NCBI GenBank assembly: GCA_905178155.1
Contig: CAJINV010000002.1
Coordinates: 7,098,893-7,162,742 of the forward strand
Direction: 5' to 3'
Length of the DNA: 63,850 bases
From: Amoebophrya sp. A120
Taxonomy: Eukaryota > Protista > Dinoflagellata
Shown here: positions 18,624-60,636 of the stretch, in pieces
Layout: each line of letters begins with the position of its first letter
How positions within the stretch are numbered: the first letter of the stretch is position 1
The notes under the pieces: model-generated
The model's database searches: none
Told to the model about the DNA's origin: nothing
What the model saw: the letters and a program-made list of their open reading frames with translations, nothing else
Made by a program: the position numbers and the translations under genes

Positions 18624-19805
18624 ATGGCCCGATCTTCCTCCGGGACTAGCCCAGCTCGCAGCTCCGGCCGGAACTCCACCACCGCCAGTCGTCGCCGCAG
18701 TTCTTCCAGAAAACCAACCGCGGGGCCTTCATCTGCCTTAACACCTAAATCGCGCTTGACAGCCACGGCCTCATCACCCACCACCAACACAGGCAGCAAA
18801 AATAAATCCCTGGTCCACATCTTCTTCGAATCCTTTTGGGGCACGGTCGTGGATTTTCTCGGGTTCAACCTCGGTCCGGGGTTCATCATGATCCGCATGT
18901 GCCACATTGTGAACGCCTTCAAGGGGGCCACGCTTCCCTTCTGCATCTTCCTCATGCACTATCCAGGAAAATAAAACACCCATCCCCATCCATTTTTTGC
19001 ATGACAAATGTTGCTTTTGATGCGTGTTTTGCATAACAAATTGGATGGGGATGGGTGTTTTTTCCTGGATATGTACCACTTCGACAATTTTTCCGCCCCC
19101 TGCCTCACCTACACAGCGCTCCACGGTAGCTACGGCGTTTTATGGGTTTTGAAAGAGCACTGGTGCCCTGACAGACGATTTCACGAGCGCGTCCCGCTAG
19201 GCTCAGCGCTCGCCGCGGCGGTCTTTTGCGGTCTGTATTGGCTGGCACCGGTTTTGCTTATTTCGAAGTACGAGTACAGAAGCGCCGGTACTAGCACAGG
19301 CACAGGCTACGACTACTTCAACATGTTCTCTGGTAGCATTACTTCCGCGGCCTACCCTATCGAGGTTTCACCGGTGCGGCAGGCAGTCTGTACCTTCGTC
19401 TACGTCATTGGCGTGGTCATGATGTTGGTTGCGGACACACACAAATTCATCGCGTTGGAAATGTACTACAAAGGTGGAAGCAAGATGGTGGACAAACATG
19501 AAGTTGACCACGACACGGAGATCAACGAGAAGAAAAAGACTGCACCGCTTCTCATCCAAGACGGCATCTTCTCCAACAACCGAAATCCAAACTACCTCGG
19601 CGAGATGCTCCTCTACGGCTCGTTTGCGGGGCTGGTTCCGAACAGCGACATACCGAAGTACGTTCTCGCGTTTGCCTGGGGGGCTCTGTTCACGGTGAAT
19701 ATTTACAAGAAGGAGTCAAGTTTGATGCGAAAGCCTGGATATGAGGCGTACGCAAAGAGAAGTTGGATCATCTTGCCAAAGCCTAAAAATTTCTTGCTCA
19801 GATGA
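18624..19805 (+). CDS. DUF1295 / steroid 5-alpha-reductase-like (ICMT-fold) membrane protein
   Basis: Motifs HIVNAFKG, YTALHGSYGVLWVLK, ADTHKF, LIQDGIFSNNRNPNYLGEMLLYGSF, YEAYAKRS. Two same-frame ORFs separated by a 117-nt TIR insertion containing a stop. Confidence 0.85.
18960..19071. mobile_element. Introner (non-canonical TIR intron)
   Basis: TATCCAGGAAA..AACACCCATCCCCATCCA / TGGATGGGGATGGGTGTTTTTTCCTGGATA. Flanks TGCAC (18955-59) / TGTAC (19072-76). Removing 117 nt restores the frame. Confidence 0.9.
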
Positions 19806-20584
19806 TTTCCGCCGTCGTGATCGGCGAAATTGAGCTTGACACTCGGCCAAAAAATCAAAATTGTTGTCCATTATGGCATGAAGTACTACTAGTCAATAAT
19901 TACAGAAATGAAGAATTCAGCACAGAGCCACGTCTCGGAATTTCTCAGTCGGTAGGCCTTTTCTTTCTTGTGTTCCCGTTGAGCGGTCCATTGGCGTACG
20001 GACGACAAATTGGCGATCTTGACAAGCATACAGAAAAACGGCTGTGATTTTTATCAGGGTCAAGGAAGTAAACTTTGCGCTTCAGGTCTCACATAAGAGC
20101 TCGAGCAACACAGTAAAATGACGTAATAATTGATGTACTAGCAAGTGCCAAGCCTTGATGTTTCACGTGCGCGCGCATGATTGAAATAATTATCTGACGA
20201 CATGAATTATTAATATGAGACTTCGCTTTATACTTTTTTCGAAGTGTAAATGACCCGCTTTTACCTTTGCACGCTTTACTGGTGATCTGTATTTTGCTTT
20301 TTCGCACGACCTCCTGTGTCTAAACACGCGCTTCCTGGTGTAAACAAAGAAAAATTGTAGTTGTGCGCAAATTTTTCAATTTTGAACTTGGGTTCCTCCT
20401 GTCGAGGGACGAAGCTATGATGGAAAAAGATTCGTTGATTATGGCTGGCCCTTATTTGCAGTGTCATTGGCCGATGCATATCTAGTTCCAAGAACAGGAA
20501 CCGTGTGTCTTATACAAACTTTTTTTTCCACCACGTCCACCTTGTTGTTGACTTCGACGCAGTAAAAAAGTGCACCTGAAAGTC

Positions 20585-23033
20585 ATGTCGGCACCTCCTC
20601 CCGCCCAACCGTCTGCCGACGACGTAGCGTCGGACAACGATTCTGATCGCAGTTACGATTGGGACGCCGAAGAGGAGCAGTCCATGCGGCAACTCGATGC
20701 TCTCATTTCTGCCGCAAACGCGAACAACACGGAAAACCAGCATAACAAAACCCCACCACCTAATACGGAGGAGCAAGATAGTGATGATGCCGCCTGGTAC
20801 CGATCCTCGAAAACGGGCGCAGACGCAGAACATGCAGCGGAGGACGAAGGGATCAACATGAATGTTGACCAAACTACTGACAAGTTATCCGGGAAAAAAC
20901 CACCTGCAAAGGCTGAGGGCGAAAACGCGTTTAGCCCGACGTCGTCCCTCCATGTCGTGCAGACCTGTGGTGCGACGGAATTGATTCCGACGCTAACGAC
21001 GGAGGTGATTTCCCGTGGCACCTCCGGTCCTGAGGAACAAAAGGCGATCCGGGAGGCGACGCTGGCCAGGTTGGGGATACAGCCGAATCTAATCGCGCAG
21101 AGCTCGCCTTTAGAAGACGAGGACGGGAAGCAATCCTCGGTCTCCGCGACGGCCGGATCAGCGTCCACGGCCTACCAAAACCAAACCACGCTGTTAAGCA
21201 ACGGTAGATGAAGTTGATACTGCTTATTGTGATGTCAAAGTCTGTAATTACATTTCAATTTTTTGATGGTTAGATTCATTTGTACTGCAAAAAAAAAAGA
21301 AAAACGCTGTGCGTACTGTAGCAAGTCAAGTGCTTCAACATTTTCTTTTTCATCTATCAAAAAAACCCCAAGGGAACGCGCTAGAGCTTGAGGAAGATGC
21401 GAGACGCTCGTAGCGTCCAAATAATTTTCCACCGTGTGATGATCTATCAAAAAAAACATACTATATCATCAAAACAGCCTCCGGTGGTACTGGTGGCGCC
21501 CACCAGCGGTACCTTCCTTCTGGCCGCGGTTCCGCCGGGAGTGATTCGTATTTCGAACAGTACACCCAGTTCACCTCTGGCGGCGATTTGCTCGCGTACA
21601 GCAATTATCACGAGAGCAACCAGCTCGATTCTGAGGGCATTTCCCCGCCGTCGGCAGGGGGAAGTGGACTGGAATTTCGCAACAGCTTCACGGGTGGAGG
21701 ACTGAGTTCAACCGGCTCCACCGGGAAGAAGATGAAGAAAATCCCGCTTGGATCTTCGTCTTTGATACAACAACCTGATGGCGCTGCCTCTGGAGTCGTG
21801 GTAAACACGATGAACCGCGACCCGTCCTTTTCCGATGGGAAATACCTGGTCAACAACTGTCTCGCGCAGCTACCGGCCCCGCGGTCTCGACAAGGCAGTC
21901 GCGAGCACAGCAGTAGTAGCGTCGTGGGCACGGGGAAGGAGCTGCACCAGAGGCTGCAGCTGGCTTTGTTGCAGGAACGGGAAGAGGACGACTCCGGGAC
22001 GGTCACGGGAGGCCTGTCCTACGAGCAACTGGCGGAGTTGCAAGGTTTGTCGCCGAACACTGTTGACCGCGCCGGAGTGGGGAAGAAGACTGGCAATATC
22101 AATCACATCACAACAACGAATGGCGAGGCCAAAGGACGAGAACCGCCGGGCAGTTCTGGTGCCTACAGCAATGACAACGGCAGGATGGCGCCGTCTTGCA
22201 CACCGCAGAACAACAAGACTGGCGGCTCTGGTATCTCCGGCGCTTCATCATCGAGCTCGACCTTGGGAGATTTGGAGGAAGGGGTACGGGATATGAAGAA
22301 CATCCGAGCCTCCGGGATGTTGAACCGCGCGGTCTTGGATGACATCTCCCCAATGCGAGGAGGCGGAGGTGGATCTTCTTCCTCAAAACCAAACTCGAAA
22401 AAAACGAAGGCCTACACCCACCCGGAAGTGCATAACTACAGCCTGCAGAGGCCACCGCTGCACGCAGACCCGACGCCGGAGCCGCACGCCTTGCCGCTGC
22501 TGAAATCAACCATCGTGCACGGCGGGAACAAGAGCGCGTCCAGCTCTCCGGGCAGCTCGCCGAAAAACCCGCAGGCGGAACAGGCGAAGGAGGACGGCGG
22601 GCCGAAGTTGGCGAGCACCATGAAGTACATGTACGGCGAGATCATCGAGGACATGTTTCAAGGATCCAGCAGCTCAGACGCGGAGGGAGGTACTGCAAGT
22701 AACAAGAACGACGCTGGCACAAAATCAGAATCTTCGGAACATGTTGACTCAAAATCTTCCAGCAAAGTGACGATCAACGAAGCGGCGAATACGCAGCACA
22801 ACGGATCAACGGCTGCGTCCTCGCGGGTCAGAGACACTGAGGTTGAGGCCTTGGCGCAGGAAGGGCGAAATGCGGTCCGACTGCGTAGGGTTTTAGCCGG
22901 CGAGGATGCGGCGGAAATGCTTCGGCACGCGGATTTGATGACACTAAACTCTGTTGCGAGGGATTGTTACAAAGCGGTGCGAACATTGGAGTACGTCACG
23001 AAACGGCAGCAGGAATTGATGCGGGAAGGGTGA
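20585..23033 (+). CDS. Hypothetical low-complexity protein with a C-terminal helical region (2+ exons)
   Basis: GT-AG intron 21204-21477 joins the frames of ORFs 20570 and 21588. The 3' end may continue from a GTGAG donor at 23030. Confidence 0.7.
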
Positions 23034-25717
23034 GGAGGACAGAGGTGTAAGAAAATTGAAACTTCTTGAGGGGAGATTGAGAAAAGTAAACCCTACTGAC
23101 ATCTTTGAAAGACGCGCTTTTTTTCCATCGATCGCCCAATGGCAATGCCACCCATCATGTGTGGCCGAAATAACAGACATGGGCTCTGCGATTTATAATC
23201 GCCTACTGGCTACTTCTCTGCGTCTGCCGAAAAAGAGCCGACTGCCGACGTGTTTCTTTTCGCATCGTCCTTCTGTCCGCACCGCGGCGGTCATTTTTGT
23301 CGCCGGTCGGTTGAGGTTGTTCGCAGGGATCTCCCAGATCATTAGCTCCGGTCTCTTCCTTGCTTGTCGTTGTTGGCATATTCGAGGCGGCCAAACCCAG
23401 AGCCAGAGTGGGCAACTTGGCCGGCGCCGTTCGTGGTCTGGTGCGGGCCTCCTCTGGCCCCTTTCGTTGTTGGCTTCGCTTTTGCCGCCGACGCCTTGTT
23501 CCCGTGCGTTGTATTGTCTTCCGCTCCCCGTGCCCTGGGCGCCCGCCCCTCCAGTTGCTAGCGGGAAGCCCGGGGGCGAGTTCGGAACGCAGCGCGGCGC
23601 CGCTCCTCTCGGCACCCAATACACCGTAGCGCGAGCGTTGAGTGGTGGCGCCCAGTATGGGCGTGGGCACGGCCCGAGCGCCCTGCCGCAGTGGCGCGCC
23701 CGTCCGTGCCCCCTCTCTCTGGGGGACAAACGGGGCCAAAAATTGCTGCAGGGGGGCGGGAGGGCCAGACGTTGCCGGGCAGCGAAGTGGGCCGGTGGTA
23801 TTTCCAAGCCAAAATAAACGAAAAGCGAACCCGCATGGCATGGACGACGATGAAAGACATGAGGTGGCGCGCGGTTTCGTTTTTGGAGGAAGCAGGGCGC
23901 CGGGCAGCGAAGTGGGCCGGTGGCGCTCGCGCCAGGCCGCCCGCGGTCCCTTCGCCTCGCGAGCGCTGTGGGTTGCTTGTTGCCCGGGCCCCGCTGTCGC
24001 CCCCTCCCCCGGCGGCTGTTGGAGGCAGGAGGCGCGCGCGACTTGGAGAGGGGGTATTGGGAGGCCGCCCCGCGCCCGAAACTAACAATCTAAACCTCCG
24101 CGGCGGCCGTCCGCCGGCATTGATTTTGTTGGGGGGGCTCGCTGACGCCATGCGGCACCGATCGAACCCATGCCAGCTAGCTTTCGAAGGCCAGCGCCCG
24201 AGTTCCAAAGCGGGAAGGCTCCGACCTCGGGCGTAGTTGTGCACGCGCACCGACTTGCGAACCGGCGCAGCGCGATCCAGAAGAAAAACGGGCGGCCCAG
24301 TTTTGCCTTGTGTCGCCCTAGTTGGCTTCTCATTTGATGAAGGAGGGGGGGGCTTGCTCCCCATTTGAGCTTGGTGGTCGCGTCGCTCGGAAGGCGCGTC
24401 GCCGCGGTCGCGTCCAAGTTAATAAATATGGCGGAAGGCGCGCCGTGGTAGGCTGCCGCGCTCTTTGCGTGCCGGCGTTAACCAAGAGAAGAGCTTTGCC
24501 CGTCGTTTCAACTCAGCTCAGGCGCGGCGTCGCAGATGGCCAAACCATGAGACGCGGGCGCCAGCCTCCTTGCCATCCCGGCGCGCGTTGCGAAACCAAC
24601 CGACCAGGCCGGCCCGCTGGTGGGCCCGCCTGTTGGTTCAAGGAAGCAAGCCCCCGCCCGCAGCCCGGCGCGCCCGGGGGCGGCCGGCGCCTGTGCCCCG
24701 GGCGGTTGCACCTTGGCGCAGGACCGGCGGGCGCCCCGCCCTCCCTGACGCTGGACCACGATGGCAGTCGTTCCGGCCGCCGCACGCCGCAGATTCGGAT
24801 GGCTTTTTGGGAGCAGGGCACCGGCGCGGGGTGTTGTGCGCGTTTGTTTCGTATCCACTGCGGCAAAAGGGCGGGGCCCGCCGGGTTTCGCACCGACGGG
24901 CCAACCCCCGGCCGGGCGCCCGGCAGCAAGCAAGGCAAACCCGGGAGGCAGGTCCGCCGGGGTGGGGCTCGGTGGTTGCTTGGGGGGGGCGTGTTTCCGT
25001 GTTTCCTTCTCTCCGTGGATGGGCCGGGCGGGGTGTTTCGGAGTCAGTCGGAGGACCCCGGGGCCATTGCGGGCGCTAAAAAAGTGCTAAATTTTGCGCG
25101 ATTTTTAAAAAACCCGGAAGCCGGCGCGTGATGAAGGGCGCCGCCTTTTCCAGGCCGGCCCCGTTTTGGCATTGGTGGCGGGCGGTTGCCTGCCCCGCCC
25201 CGGTAGCTGCGCGCAGTGGGCCCGCGTAATATTTCGCGCGCCCTCGGGCCGCCTCCCCTCCACCTTCGAGAGGTTTCGCGCGGGGCCGCGTTGGTTTTCG
25301 GGTTTCGTTGAATTTCCGCAGCCGCGAAATCCTTGTGTTGTCCGTTTTCCTTTGTGGGCCACCGGGGCGCCCGGCCTTGGCAACCACCATGCCGGCGGGC
25401 GGCCCAGCGAGCGCGGCCCCCCGAGTCTTTCCCGGCTCGGGTCCGATGGGTGCCCGATGTCGGTAGGAGGTCGCTCTGCCCTTGGTATTTGTTGTGTCCG
25501 GGCGCCGGGGATGTTTCGGCCCTTTGTTTAGCAGAAGGCGCGCGACCAGGGTCGCGCAAAAGGTCCGGGCGCAACCATTTTCGCATCCTTCGCGAATTGC
25601 TAAAATGCCCGCTAAATCCGGGCCACAGGCGTTCTGGGAAGGATTTTGCGTTTTCGCCAGTTTTGAAGAACGTTCCGGGCCCTTCGCGGACCGTGCAGCC
25701 GCCCTTTTCCAGCAGAA

Positions 25718-25880
25718 ATTTAGCAGGGTTTTTAGCAGGCATTTTTAGCACCCAAATTTAGCAGGATTTTTAGCAGGGATTTTTAGCACCCAAATTTAGC
25801 AGGTTTTTTAGCAGAATATTTACCACCCCAAAAATAGCAGCATACTTAGCAGCAAAAATAGCAGGAATTTTAGCAGGTCC
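25718..25880. repeat. TTTAGCAGG-type minisatellite
   Basis: More than ten degenerate TTTAGCA(G/C) units at ~11-13 bp spacing. Confidence 0.85.
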
Positions 25881-29690: not shown

Positions 29691-29759
29691 CAAGGTTACA
29701 ACAACGTAGAAAGAACACGTTCCATCATGCAGCAGAAATATAGTGCCGCAAAAGAGAGT

Positions 29760-34262: not shown

Positions 34263-35963
34263 ATGGACGCCGCCAACCGTCAAGTGTATTGGGAGAAGCA
34301 GGGCAAGGACAAGCTGTGCGCGGTCCACACGCTGAACGCCCTGATGCAACAGCCGGCGTTTGACGAGTTTACGCTCGGCGCCATTGCCCAGCAGCTCGAC
34401 GCGGAGGAGTCGAGGATAATGGGCGGCCCCTCCATCCCCGGTGGAGAGAGTCACAACGTGGACGCGGACGGAAATTTTTCCCTGCCGGTGATGGAGCGCG
34501 CGCTGAATCAGTACGACATCACGCTGGTGAACCTCGACCGGCCCGACGTGCGATCCAAAATCATGTCCACCCAAGACGGTGCGTACCGTGAGGAAGCGTA
34601 CGTGTGCAACTCGCACCGGCGGGCGCACTGGTTCTGCTTGCGAAAGGTGTTCTCCAAGTGGTACGATTTTGACTCCTTGAAGCCGGCGCCGACGTTTATC
34701 TCGGACTCGCACCTGAATTCCTTCTTGGAATCAACCATGAGCGCGGGCTTCACGGTGTTCGTCGTGCGACCACGTACTACATTGTCTTCATGGGTTTGAT
34801 ATTTTTGACTTTGATCATTTATTATCCTACTTTCGCTTTCCGGCGTCATCTGAATGTCTATATGCCACAGCTTTATTCGTACTTCAATGGCAACTGTGTT
34901 CTTGCATTCCCTCATGGTGATCGATCGTTGTGTGGTAATTGTAATGCAGTGAAGATGCATTCCCCCTTAGAGTTAGAGTCAGACGAAATACGCAAAACAT
35001 ATCAGCCCAAAACTCCGCCAAGTCCAGCGTTACGCTTCCACCGCCGGACAAGTTTCTCCATCGCAATCTTGCGGGGCATCAGCACTTCCTGAATGATCGG
35101 GACATGGACAGGCTGCGAGATGAGCACCGTGCAACGGAAGACAAGGAAATGAAGGACGCACAGAAACTAGGCGAGGGTGGCGGAGATGGAGAGGATGGGT
35201 AAGAAGTACTTGAAAGCTGTGAGTTGATATGCAGAAGTCGAAGTTTTTATTTTTTTCGGCGGTTCCCAGACGTTCCTCTTCGTCCTGCATAGTAGAGAGC
35301 ATTTCCATTTAGTCTTCTAGTTCTAACATGACATCACTGACGTCGCAAAAATCCACCAATCTCTCCCACGACCTCCATCGAAACTACAACAGCGACGGCA
35401 AACCTGCCTTCACCATGGTGGTCCCCTCCGACAAGCGAAAAGTCGAGACCGACTGGAGCAAGCTTGGCGCCGGCAACACGCTTTCCGGCGGTGGTGCTTC
35501 CCAGTCCTCGCAGCCAATAGCGGTCGATGACCCGGAGATGGACGCCGATATGCGGGCCGCCATAGCAGCCTCGCTCGCAGACGTGAAGGTGCCGGAACCG
35601 CAGCAGGAGCCGGACCAGGCCAACGCGGACGCGATAACGATCCAGTTCCGCTTCAAGTCGGATCCGGCACAGAAGCGACGCTTTTTGAAATCCAACAGCA
35701 AGATTCTGGACGTGGTGCAGTACTTGGAACACGCGACAACGCAGCAAAATTTGTTTCCAACCTTGTCAGCAAATCCTGCGATGTCGCTCATTGGCTTGGA
35801 GCGCTACGCGGTAATAAAGCAGGGCTTTCCGAAGAAGGAAAAGTTCGTGCGGTGTAATTTGTCGAAGAGGGTGTACCTCGACGGAGAAGACGTCACAGAT
35901 GCAAGTCTCTTGGACCGGAAATTCGAGAAGCAGGAAGCCATGATTCTGCAGCTGGAAGCTTAA
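34263..35963 (+). CDS. Ataxin-3-like Josephin deubiquitinase with UIM and a C-terminal UBX-like domain (3 exons)
   Basis: YWEKQ..LCAVHTLNALMQ, GNFS, HWFCLRK, WYDFDSL; UIM DADMRAAIAASL; UBX-like ITIQFRF..KRRF. GT-AG introns 34774-35005 and 35199-35392 are frame-consistent. Confidence 0.9.
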
Positions 35964-38281: not shown

Positions 38282-40674
38282 ATGTTCGGTGCCTGTCTGT
38301 CCACGTCCTCCGCGTCGATGCAGGATGACTTTCTCGTCGGCCCCTGCACCGCGGTCTGCCAGCGCCCGGTCGTGAATACGCGGTCCAGCAGCAAACAGCC
38401 AAAGCGGTCCTCTTCGTCCTCGCAGCACCACATGGCTCTCGTGCCCAGCTTCGAGAAAAAGTACCCCCCGACGGGCCCGACGGAGGACGATTTGAAGCAG
38501 GTGCTGGTCCGCTTGTACCACGATCCGGCGCTGGCCTCGGTGCTGTTCCAACAAACAGGCAGTCCTGGGAAAACAAGCAGTGCAAATAAATCTATATCTA
38601 GTACGAATAAAAATGATCCTAGATCGGCCTATCCGCCGGCGAAAATCCCGTGGGAGGTTTTCTGGAAGGAGAATTTGAGATTTCTCATCCACTACGAAAC
38701 GAAGAAGCCGGAACTGCGGCTGAAATCCTCCCACCTAGTCCAATTCCTCGTGCTCTTCCGCCACAGCGTGAAAAACGACGTTTTCGACCTAACGAAACCG
38801 ATCGACGAGAGGAAGTACCAGGACGCGTTCGAGGGGATTTTGACGAAAGACGTGAACACGCAGCTGATAAAGGACATCGCCCGCGCGGAATGGACCATCG
38901 ACGGCGAGGGCTTCTCTTTCGCGAAGTACCTGGAAAGCGCGAAAAATTTGTCTAGCGTACATACCGGCATGGACCAGAGCACGAACTCGACCACGGTCGG
39001 TGGGAGCAGTACGGTTTCGTCGTATAATGTGGCGATGAACAGTGGAAATAAGGTATCATCTTCAAATCACAATAGACCTCTGATCAACACGTCCTCGACG
39101 GCCGTTCCGCCCGCCACAGACAATAAAGAACCGTATGCGGTTTATAGTAAGTCAAGCTCTTCCACCATGTCGGAAGAGCCTAAAAATAGAGCTAAGGCGG
39201 GAGTTGTAGGATCAACGGGCAAGAGCCAGCAAGTAAACTCCTCACTTCTGTCTACCGGCAATATTAAAGCACCTGCTCCTGCGCCAATCATATCCTCTGC
39301 GATGTCACAGCTCCAAAAGGAAGAGAAATTGAAGGAGAAGTTTCAGTATTTTTTCCTCGAAAAGCTGGAGAATTTCTTTCTGGCCTTCGCGAAGCAAGAG
39401 AAACTCTCCGCAAACCACACCTCCGCACTGATACAGGCGGTGACCACGCAGATGTGTCAGTGTGGACTTGCGAACTTGGACCGGGGAAGCTACAGCCGGA
39501 AGTATTTGGTTTCCGGGACAAATTTGGACCAAACCACAGTGTATTCGTTGTCGAAGGATGGGGACTCGTTGAAACTGACGCTGATGTGCATGAAAACGAA
39601 TTTCACCGACTACTTCGACATGACAGTTGGAGGAGGCGTTGTAGCAAGTAGTAGTAGTGCAGCAACTGGTTCGGGGAGTGGTACAGGTACAGGTACAGCA
39701 CACCTCGTCCCGGGAGCTGGAGAAGACGTAGTGGTGGTCCCCGAGCAGCAGCAGAAGCGGCACACCGGTGCTACTGGTACCAGTACTGGCGCACCAGGAG
39801 CAGCGTCGTCTGCATCGAATAAACTGAAGCAGCCAAGTGTCGTCTCAAAAACGTCCCTCTCAACCACCTCTGACACAACGCGGACCGCGGATCAAGCAGC
39901 CAAAAGCAACGCTCTAAACGCGAATATTAAAAACCCGTCAGCACCATCAGGATCAGCAGCGGCAATTTCCCCGAACGAAATTGTGATTTCTCCGACTACC
40001 ATCTCGGAAATGAACCCCACGGAGCCGCCAGAATCCGCAAGATCTGCGGGAAGCTTGTACCTCGCCGACGCGAAAAACACCAGCACCGCGATATGCATTG
40101 CAAAAGTATCGTACTAGTACAAATTGCATTACAAATCTTATCAGAAAGAAAAATGGAATTTGTAATGCTAATTGAGGTAAAAAGGTAGGTTTGTCATGCA
40201 AGATTGCAATTAGTACGAGTACGATACTTTTGCACAGGATACGCGAATCTGTCCTACAATCCGTTGTTCTGCCAGCCTCCCGCCTCCGCCATCAAAATCG
40301 CACCGGTGAGTGCCAACAAAGCGCCCAAAGTAGCCTCGCCTGGGAGTAGAGATCGGGTCATTGCTGGGGATGTTTTACACGACAGCGCGCAACATAAAGC
40401 CCAGCTTGCGGAACAGCAAGAAGCCAGCATAATGAGCGACGCCCCGTGTCGCTGCGCGAGCGGGTCGTATCTCTACCAGCACGCGACGCTGAAATTTACT
40501 CCGAACAAGGCAGCGAACGGGGTCGGTGGAGGAAGTACTGGAAATAATGCCGGGATTGGAAGTGCGGGTGTGAATACAGGGCCTGCGGGGGATCGTGGTG
40601 CAGCGCGCAGTATTGAGTATGTGTCTGTCGATGTGATTGATGGCCTTGATGAAGTAAAAATCATTCCGCCATGA
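38282..40674 (+). CDS. Hypothetical protein (2 exons, non-canonical intron)
   Basis: ORFs 38282-40117 and 40204-40674 join in frame (..STA|NLSYN..) after removing 155 nt. Globular patches separated by S/T-rich linkers. Confidence 0.75.
40092..40241. mobile_element. Introner, family B
   Basis: TATGCATTGCAAAAGTATCGTACTAGTAC / GTACGAGTACGATACTTTTGCACAGGATA. Perfect CGCGA direct repeat (40087-91 / 40242-46). Confidence 0.9.
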
Positions 40675-47348: not shown

Positions 47349-49153
47349 ATGCCTGCCGCCCCGACCGCAGCTACCAAGCTGATCACTCTGGACACGGCTG
47401 TCCGCGCAGCCGCACAGCGGAGGCAGCAACTACATACGCCAACTGTCGCCCCGCAAGCAAAGAATGACACGCATGATCCGCAGCATAAGCGGCCCAATCC
47501 GCAGACTGTCCAGCCTGGCGGGGTGTTGTTTTTGCCGTCACCGACAAGCGCCGCGACAAACCAGCGCCTTCAGCTGCACGAAGTACACACTCCAAAAAGT
47601 CGTCGTGCCATTAGCCTGGAACAAGATGAAGCAGGAAAAAAGGATGCGAAGGAGCAAGGCCATCCACCTAATTCCATGCTCACTCCCACACCCTGCCGCG
47701 CAAAAATGCAAAGCAGATTGTCCAGCAGAAACAAAGTCGACACTTCTGAGGACCACAAACACAACAGTACCAGGGACTCCATCGCATCAACCACATCCAC
47801 ACAAAAGGAGAAGCGTCTCTCGACGCAAATTCATCAGAACAACAAGCAGCTATCCACAGTAAATTTCCCGTACGCGTACAATTGCAGTCTCTGCATGGCA
47901 AAACTTGCCATCAGTCCTAGTCTAGCATGACAAGTTGGACAGTGCAAGTTGGCGCAATTTGTCATGCATTTTGTACATGTACGGGAAATTTACAGTGCAT
48001 AGCAGCAAGATCCCCCACGGATGAACGACTACTCCGACGTGCTAACCGGTTTGACCGGTTATCAAATGTGAAAATGTCTGGGTCTGGAAACTTGTGATGC
48101 TGGGTGGCGTCTCATGATGAGCCCACAAGTGCTGGCTCAGCATGACAAGTTTCTGAGCTTCTAGGTGTTGCCCAATCTGCATGACAAACTGCGTTTCTGC
48201 ATCACAGAAAAATGGAGCTCTTGGGTAACGTGCATGACAGATTTAAGAGTCATGCCAGACAAGCATGACAAACATGCAGTCTTCCAGACCCAGACACTTT
48301 TGCACTTGATACCGGTTCGCAGGGGTCCATCTCCCTAGTCACCGCTCTGTTGGCTGGTTTCGCGTTTGCAGGTCTCTCCTCCGTCAGCCGGGAGGACTAC
48401 GAAACCGGGCCGGCGTGGGCCTCGTACTCCTTTCCAGTGGTCACAGGGATTTCCATTGCCTTGTCCCTGTACACGAGCGTGTGTTGCGCAATTTTGGAGC
48501 AGCAAGGGCGAATCGCAAAGGCGTTGGCAGTCGCGAGAGGGGAAAACACGGTGGCGAGGGTGAAATACGAGCAGCAGTTGGAAAAGTGGTACATTTGTAA
48601 TCTCCGAAGATGAAAAAGCCTACCGCGCATTCGTGGATATGATGCGTGAATGTCGTGACCATTCGGTCGGTGTTTAGTTTCTTCAATGACCCGCTTCGAT
48701 GTGAGTACTTCTTCTGTTTTCATTTTTGTTCTTTGCGGGAGTTGTCTATGTCTTCAACATGTCATATCAATCTACTCCAATCACGACATAAATGATCTCG
48801 ATAGGTATGGCGAAGATTCGTTTCGCACGTGGCGCACGCAGCTGGTTTGGGTTTTCATGTACGGCTCCCCGTCCTTTGCGGTTTCCATCGGACTGATGTG
48901 CGTCATCAAAATGCCCCTGGTCCAGGGCCTGATTTGCTTTGCCGTGTTTGCGGTCCTCGGCGTTTCCATCATCTCCACCCTGCTTTGGTTAAACCGACCC
49001 TTCCGCGTGAAAGTTTTGTGTCTGGCAGCCACCACGCACGCCGCCCCTTACGAAAGTGTAGATAAGAAGAGCCCCGCGATGCTGTTGTTCTCTGAGCGAT
49101 GGGTAATAATTGTTTTCCTCGTGCTCGTTCGTGACGCAACGTCACACGCATGA
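47349..49153 (+). CDS. Four-TM membrane protein (4 exons)
   Basis: Removing 156 nt (47850-48005), 257 nt (48059-48315) and GT-AG intron 48589-48804 gives ..MNDYSDVLTGLTGSQGSISLVTALLAGFAFAGL..KWYGEDSFRTWR.. with four hydrophobic segments. Start could instead be ATG 48021. Confidence 0.7.
47851..48001. mobile_element. Introner
   Basis: TATCCACAGTAAATTTCCCGTAC / GTACGGGAAATTTACAGTGCATA. Perfect GCAGC direct repeat (47846-50 / 48002-06). Confidence 0.88.
48060..48311. mobile_element. Introner, family A
   Basis: TATCAAATGTGAAAATGTCTGGGTCTGGAA / TTCCAGACCCAGACACTTTTGCACTTGATA. Perfect CCGGT direct repeat (48055-59 / 48312-16). Confidence 0.9.
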
Positions 49154-50941: not shown

Positions 50942-53900
50942 ATGTTGACGAGGAGTAATCTTTCTCCTTCCGGAGAACGCCAAAATGACCGTTCTGGGAT
51001 GGTGTTGGTCGTGAAACCGTACGGCCGCGAGCGCTGCTCCGTTTGTGCAGCAGGTCTCCTACTAGCGACGCTTCTTTGCTTCCTTGGAAACCCCTCAGCG
51101 AATTTTTGGGCTAGTGGTCGCATCGGTGATAAGCGGAAGAAGGACATAGTTATCAACGCGGCAGTGGGCCAGGAAGAGCCGGATGGCGAACAGGCAGACT
51201 TCGCTCAGGAAGATGAAGAACAAGCAGCACTCGGACCCGAGGAAGTGCAACCAGAACCTCAGTTTTTTCATCTTCGCAGCGCCAAAAAAAGTTCGGGATT
51301 TTCATCCTTCCCCAGCCTTGTTTCCACTTCCGACATGACCTCGTCCCTCGTGCAGCGAGCCGATTTCCCCCGACACCTTCCTTGTTTAACCGGCGATTGC
51401 CTCCCGCAAAACAGCATCCAGGGGTACGGGCTTCCTGGTCGTGTGGAGAACCATGCAGGTTCTACTTCAACAGCTCCACCCATTTCATTTACTGCAAGAA
51501 CGGTGCGGAGGCCAGGCGCCGACGTGGAGGACATGAGACTCTCGACGCAGGTTACGACCATGGACTTTCGCGGGACACAGCATTGGGACGTGCCCGTCGG
51601 CGGCAAGGACTACGTGGTGGTGCATGTAACCCGCGACAAGGCCGGAGGCGAAATTTCGGAAACATGGTCGCACCTGCCGCGGTTCAGGTTGCCCCATGAG
51701 TTGTTCAACCATCAGCACTGGCAGAGCGCTGTGCAGAAGGGGGTTAGATGGTTCGGAATCTATGGTCTCAACAAGACGGAAGAGGACGTCGATCTCCGAG
51801 AGGTGGTGATTTGGCACAGCGAGGCGGGTGGGCGCGAATGCAAGGAGCAACCGCATCAGGTGTTCATGGGGTATATCCAGCCAAACGGACCGCCTCCGTG
51901 CACGCAGCCAAGCATGGAACCGATCCCGAGTGCCTGGTCCACCCTCCTGGGAAGCGAAACAAACAGCGCAACCAACGCCCATGACGGAAAGCCAAGAAGC
52001 GAGGGAAATCACATGGAGCTAAAGTACGAAAATAAAACAATCAAGGACGGGCTCATAAAAATGGACATCTTAAACTTCACTGTCCTGACAGTGAGCGAAG
52101 GCGACAATTTTGATTGGGGCCTGCGTCGTAACCATTGGGCCCATCTGCGAGGCTTCGAACTGCCCGAGGCATTTCAGCAACAGGACGTCGTTACATCTGC
52201 AGAGACTCAGCATCCAGGCCGTTATATCTGGTTTGGAGTGTGGTCGCCTTTTTTCCCCGGTCTTGACGAACTCGAGCCGGCTATGCGGGAGTTCACGGGC
52301 CAGTACGAACTCGTGGTATGCATTGCAAATATGCCCTCTGGGTAAGGAACGTTGTGAACTAACTTGTGATGCTCTCTGTCCTGCATCTTCACACGAAAAT
52401 CTGTAATTCGTAGCGTACCCGGTCAGCAAAAAGAAAAAAACATAGCTCCGAGGCCGATCCACATGATGATGATGATGATGATGATAATGATGGTCTCGAT
52501 GTGTAACAAAACCTGTCCACATCATCACATCAACTTTTGGCCACGTACTTGAAAGTCAAAGTCGTGCATTGCTCATGCGTAATAGGCATAGCAAAGGTGT
52601 TGCAGATGAAGCAGTACCTGCATGCCTTCCAGACCCAGACATATTTGCATTCGATATGTGGTCATGTGGCACAACATCAAGGATGGCACCGAATGCATCG
52701 ACTTTAGAACAGAGCCAAGATACAGCGATCCCTGCGATACGGAAACCGCTCGACCAATTCCCGAGTCCTGGACGAGAGGTTTTGCCTTCGAGCCGATCCA
52801 GTTCGTGAATGACACAGTTCTTGCTGCGCTCGAAGCGGAGATGCGACCGCCCGGCCAGAAAAAACCGTGGGTCTACACAAACGAAACAGTTCGCTGGTAT
52901 GGCAAAACTGACTACGTAACGACGACGGAGTGGGAAGGAGACAACTACGGCTGGGGGCATCGCCGGACGTGGTGGGCGCACTTACCTACGTTTCAGTTCC
53001 CGAAGTCAGTCGACCGACAGGAGGTCCAAGGGTTTCGAGAAAAAAACGGCGGGGCGGTTTGGCTCGGTTTGCGCGCTCATTTTGGTGGAACCCGCGACAA
53101 CACTCTTCTTGAAGTGAGAAGGCCCGCAGACACCATGGTCATCATCTGGCACAACGAAGCCACCGGGGCCGAATGCGTCGAGTTCGACAGGGAGTCAAAG
53201 TACGGCGGGCCGTGCTTGTCGCCACGCGCCCGACCGATTCCCAGCTCGTGGAAAAAAGAAGCATCCGGTGTGTCGTTTTCGCAAAAGGCCAGTCGGGATT
53301 CAACCACCAGCTTCCAGCTCAACCCCCCGTCGCCCTCTCTACTGCGAGGTGGAAAAACTACGGCCTCAGTGTCCTTCGTGCAGGAAGAAAAAACGGGACG
53401 CAAAAAAGAACAACAGGGTTACAGTTCCGGCAGCACGTCCTGTGGGTCCAGTGGAGAGGACGTTTCCTCCCCTCGCAGCTCCAGCTCCTTTGCGCAACTA
53501 CAACAAGGGACGACGACACTGTCCGATGCTGAAAGCGCGGCGCAACAACTGGAAGCTTTGCAAGATGTGCGGGAGCAGGCACATCAAAAGGGGTTCACGG
53601 TTGACAAAGACGGGCACGTCAGTGCCTTGGCGAGTGGAGGAAGCAGTAACGGGGTCCCCGATTTGGATTATATCGCAAGAAAAACTGTCTCAGTCTCAAC
53701 TTGTCATGCGGAATTCCCTTGAGACAGTTAGTTTTTTTTTTTTGCCATGCTCGACATGCAAGAAACGCGTCTTTCGTATGTGTTTTCCCTTGTAGAAGTG
53801 TCTACGCATCTACTTCACATCAACATGCTGAGCAAAAAAATTGTAGTGCTGAGTCTGCAAAGGTTCGAGACTAAGACAGTTTTTTCTCACGAAAGCCGAC

Positions 53901-54052
53901 TTTCCGATACCGATAGACCGCCGGTACTACCAGTTCGAGCAAATCGAGAGCCGAATCGCGGAGGAGAAACTGGAACAAGAACGTGCCGACCGCTTGGTGG
54001 AGCAGAGCCTCGTCCACGGGGGAGTAGCTGAGCAGAGCCGATCCACTGATGA

Positions 54053-54083
<31 letters not shown>

Positions 54084-54678
54084 GCGCATGATGAGCAGGA
54101 TGGTGCTGGGCACAGCCCGGTCGCGGCTCCTTTGCAAGGTTCTTGGACCACGACCACCAGGAACACACCCTGTGGTTGCTTCACCGCCGAAAATTATGGT
54201 GAGAGCGAGAGGCATGTATTTTTTTTGCGATGTGTTTTCGGTTTTACATCGTACAGAATACATGCTTACGGAGTATACTGGAGGAGAACGGCCGCAGATT
54301 CGTACACTGTGCATCGTACATCATGCACGCAGTGTACTAGGGTGGGTCACGTACTAGGGTAGGGCACAGTGTACAGGTAAAGCCTCCAATGTACTTTGTA
54401 AGCATGTATTCTGTACGATGTAAAACCGAAAACACATCGCAAAAAAAGCGCATGCCTCTCGCCCCCACCATACCCGTTGCTTCGGGTGCCAGCACAGCAC
54501 CTGGAACTCTCTTCCACAGGACGACTCCTTTCCATCGTACGACTCGGACGACGGATACGTGTCGGATATTGGGCACCGCCCGGGAGTTCCAGTGTACCTG
54601 GCCGGGAGAAGTAAAGGACCCTCGTCTAGGTCCTCGGGACTCGGTGGTGCAATTTCGTCCTTCGGGGGGAGACGCTGA
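50942..54678 (+). CDS. Secreted or membrane-anchored modular protein, paralog 1
   Basis: Hydrophobic AAGLLLATLLCFLG; repeats W.HL..F..P...WFG...VVIWH..G.EC...PC...PIP.SW; interrupted by elements at 52317, 53671 and 54195; ends ..ISSFGGRR* as in paralog 2. Last junctions uncertain. Confidence 0.75.
52317..52656. mobile_element. Introner, family A
   Basis: TATGCATTGCAAATATG..CTGGGT / ACCCAGACATATTTGCATTCGATA. Flanks CGTGG / TGTGG. Removing 345 nt gives ELVVMWHN, matching sister repeats EVVIWHS and MVIIWHN. Confidence 0.9.
53671..53915. mobile_element. Degenerate introner
   Basis: TATCGCAAGAAAAACTGTCTCAGTCTC / GAGACTAAGACAGTTTTTTCTCACG. Absent from the paralog (~59447-59460). Boundary unclear: 250 or 256 nt both restore the frame. 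Confidence 0.7.
54195..54472. mobile_element. Introner with ~90-bp TIRs
   Basis: TATGGTGAGAGCGAGAGGCATG..GCGATGTGTTTTCGGTTTTACATCGTACAGAATACATGCTTAC is mirrored at ~54383-54472, ending CCCCCACCATA. No intact direct repeat. Confidence 0.85.
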
Positions 54679-55925: not shown

Positions 55926-58900
55926 ATGGTGCTGTTGGTCGTGAAACCGTACGGCCGCGAGCGCTGCTCCGTTTGTGCAGCAGGTCTACTGCTAGCAACG
56001 CTTCTTTGCTTGTTCCTTGGACACCCCTCAGCGAATTTTTGGGCTAGTGGTCGCATCGGCGATAAGCGGAAAAACATAATCATCAGCGCCATCAACGACC
56101 AGGAGGAACATGATGGCGAGCAGGCAGACTCCGCTCAAGAAGATGATGAAGTAGAACATCAAGCGGCACTCGACGGACCCGATGAAATGCAAGATGAACC
56201 TCAGTTTTTTCATCTCGGATCGATGCGGCCCAGCTCGTGGAAAAAAGAAGCATCCGGTGTGTCGTTCTCGCAAAAGGCCAAAGATTCAACGACCAGCTTC
56301 CAGTCGCACCCACTGTCCTCTCAACTGCGAGGTGGAAAAGCTACAACCTCAGCGTGGTCCTTCGTGCAGGAAGAAAAAGTGGGAAGGAACAAAAAAGACG
56401 TGAAGAACGGATTTCCATATCCGGATCCTTCTCCGAGGCTCAAGAAGTACGGGTATGGAAAAAATTACACGCAGGTGCATGAGTTTGTGATAGTCATGTA
56501 TAAAAACGCGCAAGGCGAACCGAGAGCCGAGAAGTACACTGCGCTCACAAACGCCAAGGGGTACACTACCTGGGCGCACCTGCCAAACCACAGCTTTCGA
56601 GCGAGCAATGACGAGCTGCTGAGGGAGACAGAGCATTGGGTCCAGAGAGCTCCGGTGATCGATACCAACGGCATCAATCAGGGCCTTCGGTTCGGTGTCA
56701 CCCTGCTGGACATCCATCCAGATTTTCCACATGCCCAATTTGGGCCGACGACGGAGTGGTACGATCCGGCGGCTGGCACAGCACACGTCGACCTTCTCTT
56801 CGACGACGGCGACCCTAGTATGGAGGAAGAGAAGTTGACAACTTTCGGACATGCAAATTTTCCCGTGCAAAAAGCGCACGCTACTGCCGATAGCGGTGAA
56901 GAGCTCCCACTGCCTCCGACGTCGACGCGGAAGCCGCTGGCGCTGGCGCGCATCACTAGCCTCGGAGGCGGGCGGCTGGAGTACGAGTACAGTCTTCTGT
57001 TACAACCGGACGCCGAAAACGATGATGCCGGGGGGGCCAGCAACGAAACAGCCGGACCCGCAGCACTTGGCGGAACTTACGTCACGTACTACGCCGAGGC
57101 GAATCATGGGCACGCACAGTGGAAGTCCCCTTCGCTTAGCTTTACTTTAGCTAAGCCTGAAGAGGTGAACGGTGATGATGATGATGATCATAATGCTACT
57201 AGGAAACGGAAAGTAGAGTGGGGCGCCACCTTCCCGTTTTTGGATGCGAAACAGACACGCGCTTCTCTCCTAAAAAACGACGTCACCGCGACCGAGATCG
57301 ACCCGCATTCGGTGTCGTTTGGGCTCGTGCAGGTCAACACTGAACAAGTGGATCCCGATGACAGCGACAGCTTCAAACTAACGGTGGGAAATCCGGTGGT
57401 GGAAAGTTTTTTCGTTCCGCCCGGTGGCGAACGACCGAAAACGTTCGTGACAGCCTCTGGCAGAATCCCTGGGGGGCGGTATCTGACAGAATCCGGTGAG
57501 CGCCGCATCGCCCCACCAGCACACGCAAAGAGCACAAATACCAGTTCGGGCGGCACGTGGTCCTGCGGCTGCAGCGGAGACGCGTCTTCTCCCAACCCAG
57601 CAAGCTCCTTTGCGCAGGGAGACGCACAGGATAAGTCCCGTAGCTGCGGGTCTACTTGTGCAGGGCGAGAAGAAGACCACCACGATGACCATGCTGAAGA
57701 AAGGACCACTTCGGCTGCCGCTGCCGCAGATGCACATCCCCCACGGTACATGGGTGTGGATGTTCACGAGTTTCTGGTCTTCGGGCGGATGTGGAGGAGC
57801 GCGCTGGACGTACAGGGGAAGGTATGGGTGTGTCAGGTTGGAACTTTGCAAAGCGGAAAAAATGATGTTGAGCCAACATGGCGCTCCATCAACTGTCTGA
57901 GGTCATGAAACAAACGTAGAGAGACTGTCACGATTGGGGAGATTGCAGGGGCACTAGACGAAAGGACATGGCTCTGCCCTAAGCTAACATCGTGTTGACG
58001 GATTGTCTCTAAGGGCGAGACCCAGAAGCAGATAGCTTTGCCATGCGTTGCGTTACCACTTGCGGCCCTGCCTAGCAGTATTAAAGGCCATCGTCGTGAT
58101 GTCTCATATTTAAAAAGGCCGACCGCGCGCCTCGCCCCCGACTGATCCTCGTACGAGAGGGATCGGGATCGGGCGTGACAAATTCGACGAAGATTGAGAC
58201 CCTTTCTCTATGTCGATGATGACACGCACTTTTTTTCCATTTTCGCACTTTCCTGCCTGGCACGCCCATGAAGGGAGGTCAACTTGTACCGTGCGGTCAC
58301 GAGCCCCACGGGTCGCACCACCTGGGTCCTCGGTCCAGGTGCGACCGACCACGACTTTGCGGAGATTAATCGTCACCGGGGGGTGACGTTGCCGGTGATC
58401 GACTACAACGGTATTCACCAGGGCCCTCGCCTCGGGGTCGCCCTTTTGGACCGCATGTACGTGGACGAGTTCCTCTGGGATCATTCGACGCCCCCAGAAC
58501 CCGCCCTCACGGAGTGGTACGATCCAGCGGCTGGCACAGCGTCTATCGAGCCGCAGGACCGGAACGAGCTTGATCACGATGATGAACCCGCACTGGCGCT
58601 GGCTTCTGACGCGACGAAAAACAAGAAGCCGCTGCTACAGCAGCGCATCACTGGCCTTCCAAACGGCCGGAAAGAGTTCGAGTTCCGTGTACTGCTAGCG
58701 GACGACGACTTGCATGCTGTCGGCGCGGGGGACGACAAGCACAAGAGGAACAAGGCAGCTACAGGAACAAGAACAACTCCTGGGGATGAACGTGAAAAGT
58801 ACATCCATTACTATGCGGAAGCGGACACGGGTGGACATACCCAGTGGAAGTTCCTTCCGTTTAACTCTACTACGAGGGAAGAGTGGCCAAGCCTCCCGCT

Positions 58901-60636
58901 GCTGGACTTCCAGGTCAGCTCCACCTACGACTATCAAGACCACCGCGTCGATCCGCACACCCTCAGTTTTGGCCTCGTTGAGATCCACCTAGGAGATCAT
59001 GATCCCGACGATAGCAGCAGACTTGTTCTCGAAGCAGGCGGTCCTCCTCTGACGGTGTTGGTTCCAAATCCGCCCCGCGGCGGACGACCGCCACTCGTCG
59101 TGGACCACGGTTCTGGCGCACCAATTGGTGGGGCGGGAGCTGGAGGTAGTGCGCAGCTGCCCGAGTCGGCCTCGTCGTCGAAACTAAATGCCGCAAACAG
59201 CACAAATTTCAGTTCGGGTAGAAGCACGTCCTGTGGGTCCAGTGGAGAGGACGTTTCCTCCCCTCGCAGCTCCAGCTCCTTTGCGCAACTACAACAAGGG
59301 ACGACGACATTGTCCGAAGATACTGAACGCGCGGAGCAAGAACTCGAAGCTTTGCAAGACGCGAGGGAGCAGGCACATCAAACGGGGTTCACGGTTGACA
59401 AAAACGGGCACGTCAGCGCCTTGGCGAGTGGAAGTAGTAACAGTCAGCCCGACCGGTACCAGTTCCAGGAAATTGAGAGCCGAATCGCGGATGATATGAC
59501 AGTGCACAACTCCCCCTCCCCCTAATTTGTCATGCAAAATACCAAATCCAGACTGTGTTTCTTGGAACTGTTTGCATGACAAACTCCGGAATAAGCCCAA
59601 ACAGCACTACACTCCTGTGGAAATTTGTCATGCAAAACCGGCATTCTTGCTGACCCTTGTATTGCCGTTCATGCTATACAAATGAGGGGGGGGGGGGGCA
59701 GTTGTGCATTGTCATAGATGAGCAGCTGGAACAGGAACGCGCCGACCACTTGGTGGAGCAAAGCCTCGCCCACGGGGGAGTAGCCGAGCAGGATGGTGGT
59801 GGGCACGCCGTGGTCGCGGCTCCTGCGCAACATTTCGAACAAACTGTCACGAGTCAACATCACAGCAAGCGCGAGCTCGAACCGGATTGCACATCCTGTG
59901 GTTGCATCGAGTGCCACGATCTCAGCGACGACCGCGCATCCTACATTCATCATCGAAGCTCTCCCCCCCACTTTTGGCACCAGGTATCAAATGCAAATAT
60001 GTCTGGGTCTGGAAGCTTGTGATGCAAAAATGTGGATGATGGAAGCAGTTTCCTTCGCACGCAACTTAGCATGACAACTTTCCACACCTCCGCTTTTTCA
60101 TGATAGGCAATCCGCATCAGAAACTGCGTGCTTGCATGTACAAAAGAGGCTGCGACTTTTGTTGGTTATGCAATACAGATTTCCTCGGTATGGAAAGCTA
60201 GCACTACAAGTTGCATATTTCCAGACCCAGAGACTTTTGCACTTGATACAGGAGTTCTTACTACGATTCCTCTTCATCGGACGACTCGTATCACGGGGGA
60301 TACGGTATGAACTGCAAAAGTATCGTACTCGTACTAATCGTAATCGCGTTTATGCATTCACAAATCTTTTTGTTAAGGAAAATCTGCATTACAAATTTAA
60401 TTTGTAATGCTAAGTCAATTTGTATATGCACTTATACGAGTACGATACTTTTTCAATTCATATACTTACACAGTGCGGGAAGCCAAATCGGCGGCGCCAA
60501 AGACATGCTGAAGGCGGGCGCAGTTGGCGCCGCGGTGGGAGCGGCCGGAGGATACCTGGCCGGGAGGAGTAAAGGATCCTCGTCGTCCTCGGGTGGGCTC
60601 GGCGGTGCAATTTCGTCTTTCGGGGGGAGACGCTGA
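55926..60636 (+). CDS. Secreted or membrane-anchored modular protein, paralog 2
   Basis: Same N- and C-termini as paralog 1. Two copies of a domain with VHEF..TTW..PVID.NGI.QG.R.GV.LLD..TEWYDPAAGTA..YYAEA..GH.QWK..DPH..SFGLV..DPDDS. Interrupted by four TIR elements. Confidence 0.78.
57823..58270. mobile_element. Diverged introner
   Basis: TATGGGTGTGTCAGGTTGGAA..GGAAAAAA / TTTTTTCC..TTCCTGCCTGGCACGCCCATG. AAGG on both flanks. Removing 453 nt (57822-58274) or 456 nt (GT-AG) keeps the frame. Confidence 0.75.
59495..59716. mobile_element. Introner
   Basis: TATGACAGTGCACAACTCCCCC / GGGGGCAGTTGTGCATTGTCATA. Perfect GATGA direct repeat (59490-94 / 59717-21). Empty site GAGGA in paralog 1 (53961-65). 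Confidence 0.93.
59985..60248. mobile_element. Introner, family A
   Basis: TATCAAATGCAAATATGTCTGGGTCTGGAA / TTCCAGACCCAGAGACTTTTGCACTTGATA. CAGG on both flanks. Confidence 0.9.
60306..60462. mobile_element. Introner, family B
   Basis: TATGAACTGCAAAAGTATCGTACTCGTA / TACGAGTACGATACTTTTTCAATTCATA. Flanks TACGG / TACTT. Shares its TIR with 40092-40241. Confidence 0.88.

Follow-up and report, generated by a model that had tools for sequence, protein, structure and literature searches.

The elements closest to those considered here are the introner elements of the same organism, Amoebophrya sp. A120 (PMC7789003; PMC12130899). In the available parts of these accounts, they are described as having inverted repeats composed of TAT, seven variable bases and an A-run, with short direct repeats and non-canonical splicing. 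Introners make up ~17% of the A120 assembly, and both their movement and their splicing without canonical ends or detectable U1 are presented, in the same parts, as an open question; Farhat et al. report putative transposases in A25 only, not in A120, and rule out general mobilisation by transposase (PMC7789003). The families are treated separately, and in the available portions there is nothing on a motif inside the elements, on a rule for its spacing or on conservation between families (PMC7789003; PMC12130899). A literature search, with figures, some supplements and subscription papers outside its scope, returned no description of the motif considered below; the exact 9-mers are absent from the accessible part of the PMC9860276 supplement table, and GCATG from that of the PMC7789003 supplement text.

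Repeats inside the ends are also known from transposons. According to the accessible text of PMC1636448, the transposase of the Emigrant MITE (Emigrant/Lemi1) binds cooperatively to subterminal repeats, whose number and arrangement matter, and such repeats are cited for Sleeping Beauty, hAT, and CACTA as well. As in Emigrant/Lemi1, the A120 repeats are short, lie inside the ends and occur in either orientation; the Emigrant/Lemi1 repeat, however, corresponds to the inner half of the TIR in its own family, with binding demonstrated (PMC1636448), whereas in A120 one motif extends over 10 different inner-TIR types, fills the whole short element, and only weakly resembles the terminus. The TnsB arrays of Tn7-like and CAST ends, as far as described in the part of PMC10201428 available, likewise have several degenerate sites per end, sensitive to spacing and tied to helical pitch, but they are bacterial and autonomous, with TG...CA ends and longer sites, and serve as an analogy only. 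In their termini, IS3EU/GingerRoot (TA..TA) and IS481EU (TNT..AYA) both fit TAT...ATA; their TSDs, usually 6 bp in the former and ~4, 15, or 25 bp in the latter, do not agree with the 5 bp found here (PMC10045372).

The window, the whole 63,850-nt stretch of A120 DNA that was analysed, contains ten inverted-repeat elements of the form TAT...ATA (Table 1), which are published A120 introners. A Josephin exon in this stretch matches a protein named Amoebophrya sp. A120 with 100% identity over 90% of the query. Counting both strands together, GCATNACAA occurs 23 times in the window, against a mean of 2.01 and a maximum of 7 in 100 dinucleotide shuffles. All 20 sites named in the initial annotation, which was made from the letters of this stretch, were recovered where it had placed them; one at 47893 was absent from it. 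The 9-mer it had picked out is a genuine motif, but too narrow, the motif being wider than nine bases. The ten elements contain 20 of the 23 copies of GCATNACAA (9.2/kb in their 2,168 bp), and three lie outside (0.05/kb in the remaining 61,682 bp): those at 14473 and 20740 are in segments called coding, and the third, in a Josephin gene, is possibly a relic. Nine of the ten elements carry the motif, and the tenth, G, serves as an internal negative control. The same annotation had taken the TIRs to be otherwise dissimilar and the families to be unrelated, which is contradicted by arms common to several window elements: TCTGGGTCTGGAA is shared by those at 48060, 52317, and 59985, and AAAAGTATCGTACT by those at 40092 and 60306, with both of which the element at 47851 clusters. 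There are therefore ~5 motif-bearing TIR types, not nine independent ones.

Table 1. Inverted-repeat elements and the lone intron-like motif copy in the window, with motif sites (strand in parentheses where given).
Feature	Family	Position	Length	Ends and duplication	Motif sites
Introner A	F8	18960..19071	112 bp	TAT...ATA TIRs; 5-bp duplication, one mismatch	18999, 19031 (direct pair, 32 bp apart)
Lone motif copy		34939..34947		TIR-less intron-like segment, ~34781-35014, Josephin gene	34939(-)
Introner B1	F1	40092..40241	150 bp	Perfect 5-bp TSD CGCGA	40126(+), 40160(-), 40191(-); distances 34 and 31 bp
Introner C	F1	47851..48001	151 bp	TSD GCAGC	47893(+), 47925(+), 47959(-)
Introner D1	F0, very high copy	48060..48311	252 bp	TSD CCGGT	48092, 48140, 48179, 48199, 48232, 48263
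Introner D2	F0-type TIR, diverged interior	52317..52656	340 bp		52364, 52401, 52570
Introner E, degenerate	Resembles F27 (by eye)	53671..53894 (boundaries by eye)		Right end without ATA; TSD gone	53701, 53742
Foldback element G		54195..54472		TAT...ATA; 90-nt arms, no A-run, no TSD	None
Introner F	F5	59495..59716	222 bp	TSD GATGA	59527, 59574, 59625, 59673
Introner D3	F0	59985..60248	264 bp	4-bp flank repeat CAGG	60017, 60069, 60114, 60170, 60201
Introner B2	F1	60306..60462	157 bp	Decayed TSD, 3/5	60386(+), 60402(-)

Some of these can be followed in other contigs. D2 together with five flanking bases (52313-52657) is skipped in a contig from a putative RNA run, and is the one element whose skipping was seen directly. 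An empty site of introner F is visible in a paralogous gene near 53960. At element G, one contig begins at 54477 and another reads across the right end. Summed DNA contig depth for D1 is 293,636 against ~45 in its flanks, figures that are qualitative only.

A wider sample of 379 elements in 28 families, 371 of them from a related assembly, was gathered by one TIR-pattern scan of metagenome contigs, in place of a whole-genome count. It was found through the TIR of a single family, which makes up 176 of the 379. A viral scan for the same TIR pattern gave one match, and neither this nor L070, from a different assembly, held an element on inspection. Fifteen of the families are multi-copy and 13 are singletons. 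The full TAT-N7-A-run end is present in 25 of the 28, the TAT being imposed by the search, and the family-weighted end profile is TAT-[CG]-N6-A-run; by TIR the families sort into 10 groups, between which the inner TIRs differ. A perfect 5-bp duplication is found in 291 of the 379 elements, and an end-agnostic search gave a 5-bp TSD in 98 of 99 matched calls. (Tn7 makes a target duplication of 5 bp.) The introner families are not unrelated: they form one clan, with the same ends and duplication length. Insertion orientation relative to genes is even (113 vs. 109 elements), and removing the element plus 5 nt restores the reading frame in 44 of 49 cases. Being short and non-coding, with TIRs and a TSD of fixed length, and occurring in both orientations, the elements fit the description of MITEs or non-autonomous TIR transposons. 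They also agree with what has been laid down for A120 introners: the inverted repeats have TAT, seven variable bases and at least three A; the boundary direct repeat, 3-5 nt by definition, is 5 bp here, and genome repetition is seen in the 15 multi-copy families; and they are spliced, mostly with non-canonical ends.

The full motif is GCA-W-B-A-C/G-A-R-R-T, on either strand, with an average of ~2-7 copies per element in all 28 families. A symmetric EM search gave a strand-mixed palindrome, and an oriented matrix was used instead; this was trained on these same elements, and with matrices leaving one family out at a time the mean number of sites is 1.9 or more in every one of the 28 families. 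The literal 9-mer is present in at least half of the members of 25 families. Element interiors have 17.7 sites/kb, compared to 0.45 in Markov shuffles, 0.36 in coding DNA (control 0.31), and 0.61 in long non-coding DNA (control 0.46); equal frequency outside the elements, named at the outset as a finding that would count against a special motif, is thus at odds with the 0.4-0.6 sites/kb in exons and long non-coding DNA. No site is nearer than 30 bp to an element end, and, measured from it, the outermost TTGT sites directed inward are most frequent at 36-37 and 46-47 bp (significance not assessed). The terminal bases 1-15 themselves weakly fit the motif in register, with a mean score of -1.0 (shuffled mean -5.4, best shuffle -2.7).

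Within subfamilies, motif columns are ~3x more conserved than spacers. Core cells differ from the subfamily consensus in 159 of 4,263 cases (3.7%), whereas the remaining interior columns do so in 11.7% and context-matched ones in 11.8%, and the mean core column rate is 3.1%, against a null of 10.8 ± 0.8% with a minimum of 8.0% in 2,000 draws. The TSD mismatch rate is 18/660, or 2.7% (CI 1.6-4.3%), an interval that includes the core divergence. Copies with mismatched TSDs have ~6% lower site density (p = 0.023).

Arrangement is constrained as well. Direct pairs at 31-33 bp are found in 11.2 of 29 interior clusters (null 2.5 ± 1.4, maximum 7 in 300), and head-to-head pairs fall in the same spacing peak once measured centre to centre; apart from this single peak, there is no clear signal of a general 10.5-bp periodicity. 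Spacers are 30% identical between families, which is the background level, though their length is kept. The 31-33-bp pair is present in 13 of the 15 multi-copy families and three of the 13 singletons (Fisher p = 0.002), but singleton families may be without it owing to age, rather than the pair driving copying. There is no strand bias, with 574 sites in gene sense and 592 in antisense (p = 0.62), element strand relative to genes having been assigned from the majority in the local gene block, which was possible for 249 of 307 elements. As a length of DNA, 31-33 bp is about three helical turns.

The motif copies probably act at the DNA level, as binding sites for one shared protein mobilising all the families, in the manner of transposase subterminal repeats: like these, they are present in several copies inside the ends, are conserved relative to their spacers, and have a constrained arrangement. 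Under this reading the putative binder may well be the transposase itself, and with considerably less likelihood a host helper. The original suggestion of a DNA-binding site for a common transposase or host factor fits all the tests (strand, 31-33-bp spacing, conservation, and copy number), but no transposase was found: a Pfam scan gave no transposase or integrase domain in 201 of 248 predicted coding segments (~0.55 Mb; 47 short segments excluded), and the sampled contigs contained no long element, flanked by a TSD and with an ORF, that could be the parent. In the mechanism proposed, the sites would be bound by a DDE transposase, probably integrase-like, or by a host helper that it needs; the integrase-like kind is put forward because of the TA...TA ends and 5-bp duplication. 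Binding would be cooperative, on one helix face, and would assemble an end-pairing complex. Element copies with good site arrays would be amplified, and different TIR families would therefore retain one motif. Once an element is inserted, near-neutral decay of its sites would follow, since removal of the intron (the element and one copy of the duplication) would rely on the TIR hairpin or boundary and not on the motif.

The presence of the motif in every sampled family points to a single clan, served by one protein, where separate families have been published; this would go against the published exclusion of transposase mobilisation, as this is worded in the available part of PMC7789003. The 32-bp-spaced double site is a ready bait for isolating the candidate protein, and the motif is a signature for tracing both the autonomous parent and old introner-derived introns; it also allows strain comparisons to tell whether its role is in mobility or in splicing.

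It is also conceivable, though unlikely, that a DNA or chromatin protein of the host recognises the sites and so marks the element for co-transcriptional, U1-independent intron removal, the host keeping the motif after insertion. Marks at the DNA level would likewise be strand-independent and spaced; GT/GC...AG ends are possible for only 12 of 188 elements, and Amoebophrya yielded no detectable U1 snRNA, according to the accessible text of PMC7789003. TIR-less intron-like segments retain some enrichment (36 sites in 16.8 kb, ~2.1/kb vs. a control of ~0.4, or ~5-fold), with the 32-bp pair retained in some GT...AG-looking introns, and private variants in TSD-mismatched copies are about half as frequent in the core as in the interior (19.1 vs. 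42.0 per 1,000). However, 42 of the 66 TIR-less segments are without any site, the divergence of the core does not exceed that of the TSD clock, and older copies have fewer sites; nor does host marking predict a link to family copy number. The motif in TIR-less introns could be explained by a host role or by decayed introners. A combination of marking and mobilisation is more doubtful still: one protein, possibly host-encoded and unlike known transposases, might read the 32-bp-spaced array, copy the elements and flag them for U1-independent removal. If true, one code would couple transposition to a new intron-definition system, persisting in descended TIR-less introns.

At the RNA level, the copies might act in pre-mRNA by forming internal stems or as sites for an RNA-binding splicing factor, but the odds of this appear slim. 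In 31 sense-oriented elements that were folded, 75% of site bases are paired vs. 59% in the rest of the interior, and for 59 of 136 sites the predicted partner is mostly a second site, because the motif is near-palindromic and present in both orientations. The degenerate positions of inverted pairs, however, match at 1.86 of 4 versus 2.14 at random, with no covariation; orientations are balanced in 66 of 376 elements, unbalanced in 257, and single in 53; and the commonest fixed arrangement, a direct pair, is incapable of pairing. These figures, the 1.86 matches and the 53 single-orientation elements in particular, disfavour the idea of modules pairing into RNA stems with which the motif was originally reported, and a single-strand protein site should give a sense bias, which the 574:592 ratio does not show.

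Least credible of all is a motif without function, left over from common descent or from internal duplication in an ancestral element: common ancestry of the families is itself likely, because ends and TSD length are shared, and unmasked interiors give cross-family BLAST links for 49 of 378 pairs, but descent of all element interiors from a common source, also raised in the initial annotation, is insufficient alone, since after randomisation of the sites a single pair of the 378 is still linked (sensitivity fell too, within-family hits going from 19,754 to 3,086), and conservation of motif columns is three times that of their neighbours, with spacer length kept and spacer sequence at background identity.

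One other sequence was considered as an element motif and rejected: TGCATGCA, a perfect palindrome of alveolate non-coding DNA, is not enriched, its density being 0.08/kb both in elements and in the other non-coding DNA. GCATGACA is found in elements at 8.59/kb.

The motif shared by the introners (short elements with terminal inverted repeats, TIRs, and TAT...ATA ends that turn into introns) can be written GCA-W-B-A-C/G-A-R-R-T, with GCATNACAA as its 9-mer form. All 20 positions at which the initial annotation had placed the 9-mer or a variant do carry it, and the suspected excess is borne out by shuffling: the window contains 23 GCATNACAA matches, compared to a mean of 2.01 and a maximum of seven in shuffled sequence. 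The window has 10 elements: those from a systematic TAT...ATA inverted-repeat search plus one degenerate element read by eye. Nine contain the motif, and 20 of the 23 matches lie inside the 10 (9.2/kb, versus 0.05/kb outside). Their TIRs are less dissimilar than had been thought: one arm is common to three elements, three more belong to another single family, and TAT-[CG]-N6-A-run is shared by the ends.

The Josephin exon of the window is 100% identical to a protein named Amoebophrya sp. A120, and the elements have the same end signature as the A120 introners in the accessible portions of Farhat et al. (PMC7789003). In a putative RNA run, one contig passes over 52313–52657 (one element plus five bases), as well as two ordinary introns (46158–46453 and 57821–58273). 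Summed DNA contig depth over several window elements is, as a qualitative comparison only, hundreds to thousands of times that of the flanks. At 3717–63850, outside the repeat blocks, nearly all long segments predicted as coding, Josephin and acylphosphatase genes among them, are on the plus strand, in agreement with the co-oriented gene blocks previously described for Amoebophrya. Tandem paralogous genes at 50924–60625 have segments in common and differ in their introner insertions; the copy near 53960 has the empty site of the element at 59495.

Metagenome contigs were scanned with the TIR of one family. Of the 162 loci returned, nearly all come from a single assembly (JACKZZ01 contigs) that carries the same introner families as the window; seven window elements have full-length relatives in these loci (82–95% identity). 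Of 163 loci in all, eight belonged to other records and 10 were redundant; with these removed and four overlapping pairs merged, 141 sequences (551,569 bp) remained. These yielded 425 TIR calls (11 in the window), 387 with a recognizable flank duplication, and 379 elements once eight nested, chimeric, or over-long calls were removed, in 28 families and 10 inner-TIR groups. A perfect 5 bp target duplication (TSD), unbiased in sequence, flanks 291 of the 379, and in 44 of the 49 cases that could be tested, taking out the element plus one duplication restored the reading frame. Because the sample is biased to the bait family (176 of 379 elements), statistics carry family or cluster weights where stated.

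Two checks proposed in the initial annotation, motif discovery and a count inside versus outside the elements, were run on the sampled elements and contigs, and both bear the motif out. The highest family-weighted 7-mers are GCATGAC and CATGACA, and the oriented matrix, t-n-t-GCA-(T/A)-(G/C/T)-A-(C/G)-A-(A/G)-(A/G)-t, holds about 13.8 bits. Its sites occur at 17.7/kb in element interiors (0.45 in Markov shuffles), 0.36 in coding segments (control 0.31), and 0.61 in long non-coding segments (control 0.46), while intron-like segments without TIRs have about 2.1 (control about 0.4); the segment classes are from a purpose-built HMM, which recovered all three RNA-supported introns. With leave-one-family-out matrices, the mean is at least 1.9 sites in 28 of 28 families. 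No sites were found in a nested TIR element with an 8 bp duplication, three other nested inserts, or element G, a motif-free foldback in the window.

Common descent alone does not explain the sharing. Across nine subfamilies (132 copies), core columns are off consensus in 3.7% of cells, versus 11.7% elsewhere in the interior, a contrast unchanged by trinucleotide matching; in aligned subfamily consensuses, the sites are islands amid diverged spacers. Randomizing them cuts cross-family interior similarity from 49 to one of 378 family pairs, with some loss of sensitivity.

The sites are also regularly placed. Direct pairs peak at 31–33 bp and head-to-head pairs at 34 bp, peaks that coincide when taken from the center of the 11 bp site. 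The 31–33 bp direct pair is found in 11.2 of 29 interior clusters (2.5 ± 1.4 under a repositioning null), and a 31–33 bp pair is present in 79–86% of all copies, with spacers 30% identical between different families. Just one of 1,787 site centers is within 33 bp of an element end; for the first inward TTGT site, distances from the end peak at 36–37 and 46–47 bp. General helical periodicity of the sites gave no clear signal in the sample.

The initial annotation had offered either a DNA-binding site or paired RNA stems. In predicted folds, 59 of 136 sites pair with a second site, but complementarity at the degenerate positions of inverted pairs is not above random, and the two motif orientations are unequal in number in most elements. 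With respect to the gene, sense and antisense sites are equally common (574:592), and the elements themselves are oriented 113:109. Sense symmetry, random-level complementarity, and unbalanced orientations together favor a double-stranded DNA site, as read from sequence, over stems.

Such a site could serve the mobility of the element or a role in the host. For mobility, the spaced pair is present in 13 of 15 multi-copy families versus 3 of 13 singleton families, core divergence falls within the TSD mismatch rate, older copies carry fewer sites, and 42 of 66 intron-like segments without TIRs have none. A host role seems less likely; it would fit the residual five-fold enrichment in TIR-less introns, the low private-variant rates in the motif core, and the lack of any transposase domain among the 201 of 248 predicted coding segments scanned or, in its accessible portions, in the A120 study of Farhat et al. 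Some TIR-less, GT...AG-looking introns also retain intact 32 bp pairs. Intron-like segments that lack TIRs and have pairs 32–33 bp apart, some of them GT...AG-looking (L035 ~5943–5985, L034 ~3379–3420, and L011 ~2225–2270 of the sampled loci), may be decayed introners that have become canonical, or may point to a host role. Mobility is the reading we prefer, and it is reasonably probable, from the sequence patterns, that a common mobilizing protein binds cooperatively at a pair of sites spaced by three helical turns on one DNA face and helps pair the element ends. Elements with good site arrays would be copied more, so that families with different inner TIRs would keep one motif; after insertion the sites would presumably be neutral.

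The motif is real and apparently new to the literature, in which, figures, some supplements, and subscription papers aside, we found no published description; the available part of a preprint on dinoflagellate introners (Roy et al., 10.1101/2020.10.14.339549) does not mention an internal motif. Features of this kind have been described in other transposons, and the elements that carry the motif form a known, puzzling class. By analogy with partially accessible accounts, the motif may act like transposase subterminal repeats (PMC1636448) or spaced TnsB sites (PMC10201428). The introner ends match the IS3EU/GingerRoot and IS481EU signatures in the portions available of PMC10045372, but the 5 bp duplication does not fit, and the introners are therefore not assigned to either. 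Most among 40 of the 58 A120 rows in Gozashti et al. (PMC12130899) are classed there as TIR DNA of unknown superfamily, and one in the part available is noted to have a 5 bp TSD and TA/TA ends.

Other repeats and nested elements in the window and sampled loci
Feature	Location	Description
Start repeats	window 1–2460	CTTGCT hexamer run, then many ~40 nt near-palindromic units
Foldback	window 31421–31986	219 nt arms, 91% complementary; tandem ~37 bp subrepeats; no motif
Short intergenic repeat	window 44485–44580	DNA contig depth 356 versus about 45 in its bin; no TAT TIR
Element G	window 54195–54472	TAT...ATA foldback, 90 nt arms; no A-run, TSD, or motif; near single-copy depth
Nested TIR element	L020:1613–2135	523 bp, TATGGGGGG ends, 8 bp duplication; within an introner; no motif sites
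Nested insert	L011:13462–14716	roughly 1 kb, in an introner; flanking 21 bp direct repeat starts inside a motif copy

Since the nested L020 element lacks motif sites, it represents a second type of TAT-ended transposon. Element G breaks a predicted reading frame. The repeats at the window start are satellite- or subtelomere-like and differ from the published A120 telomere repeat. The larger foldback sits in a GC-rich block (about 23,000–33,400), in which the segments scanned gave no Pfam match, and is probably another mobile element.
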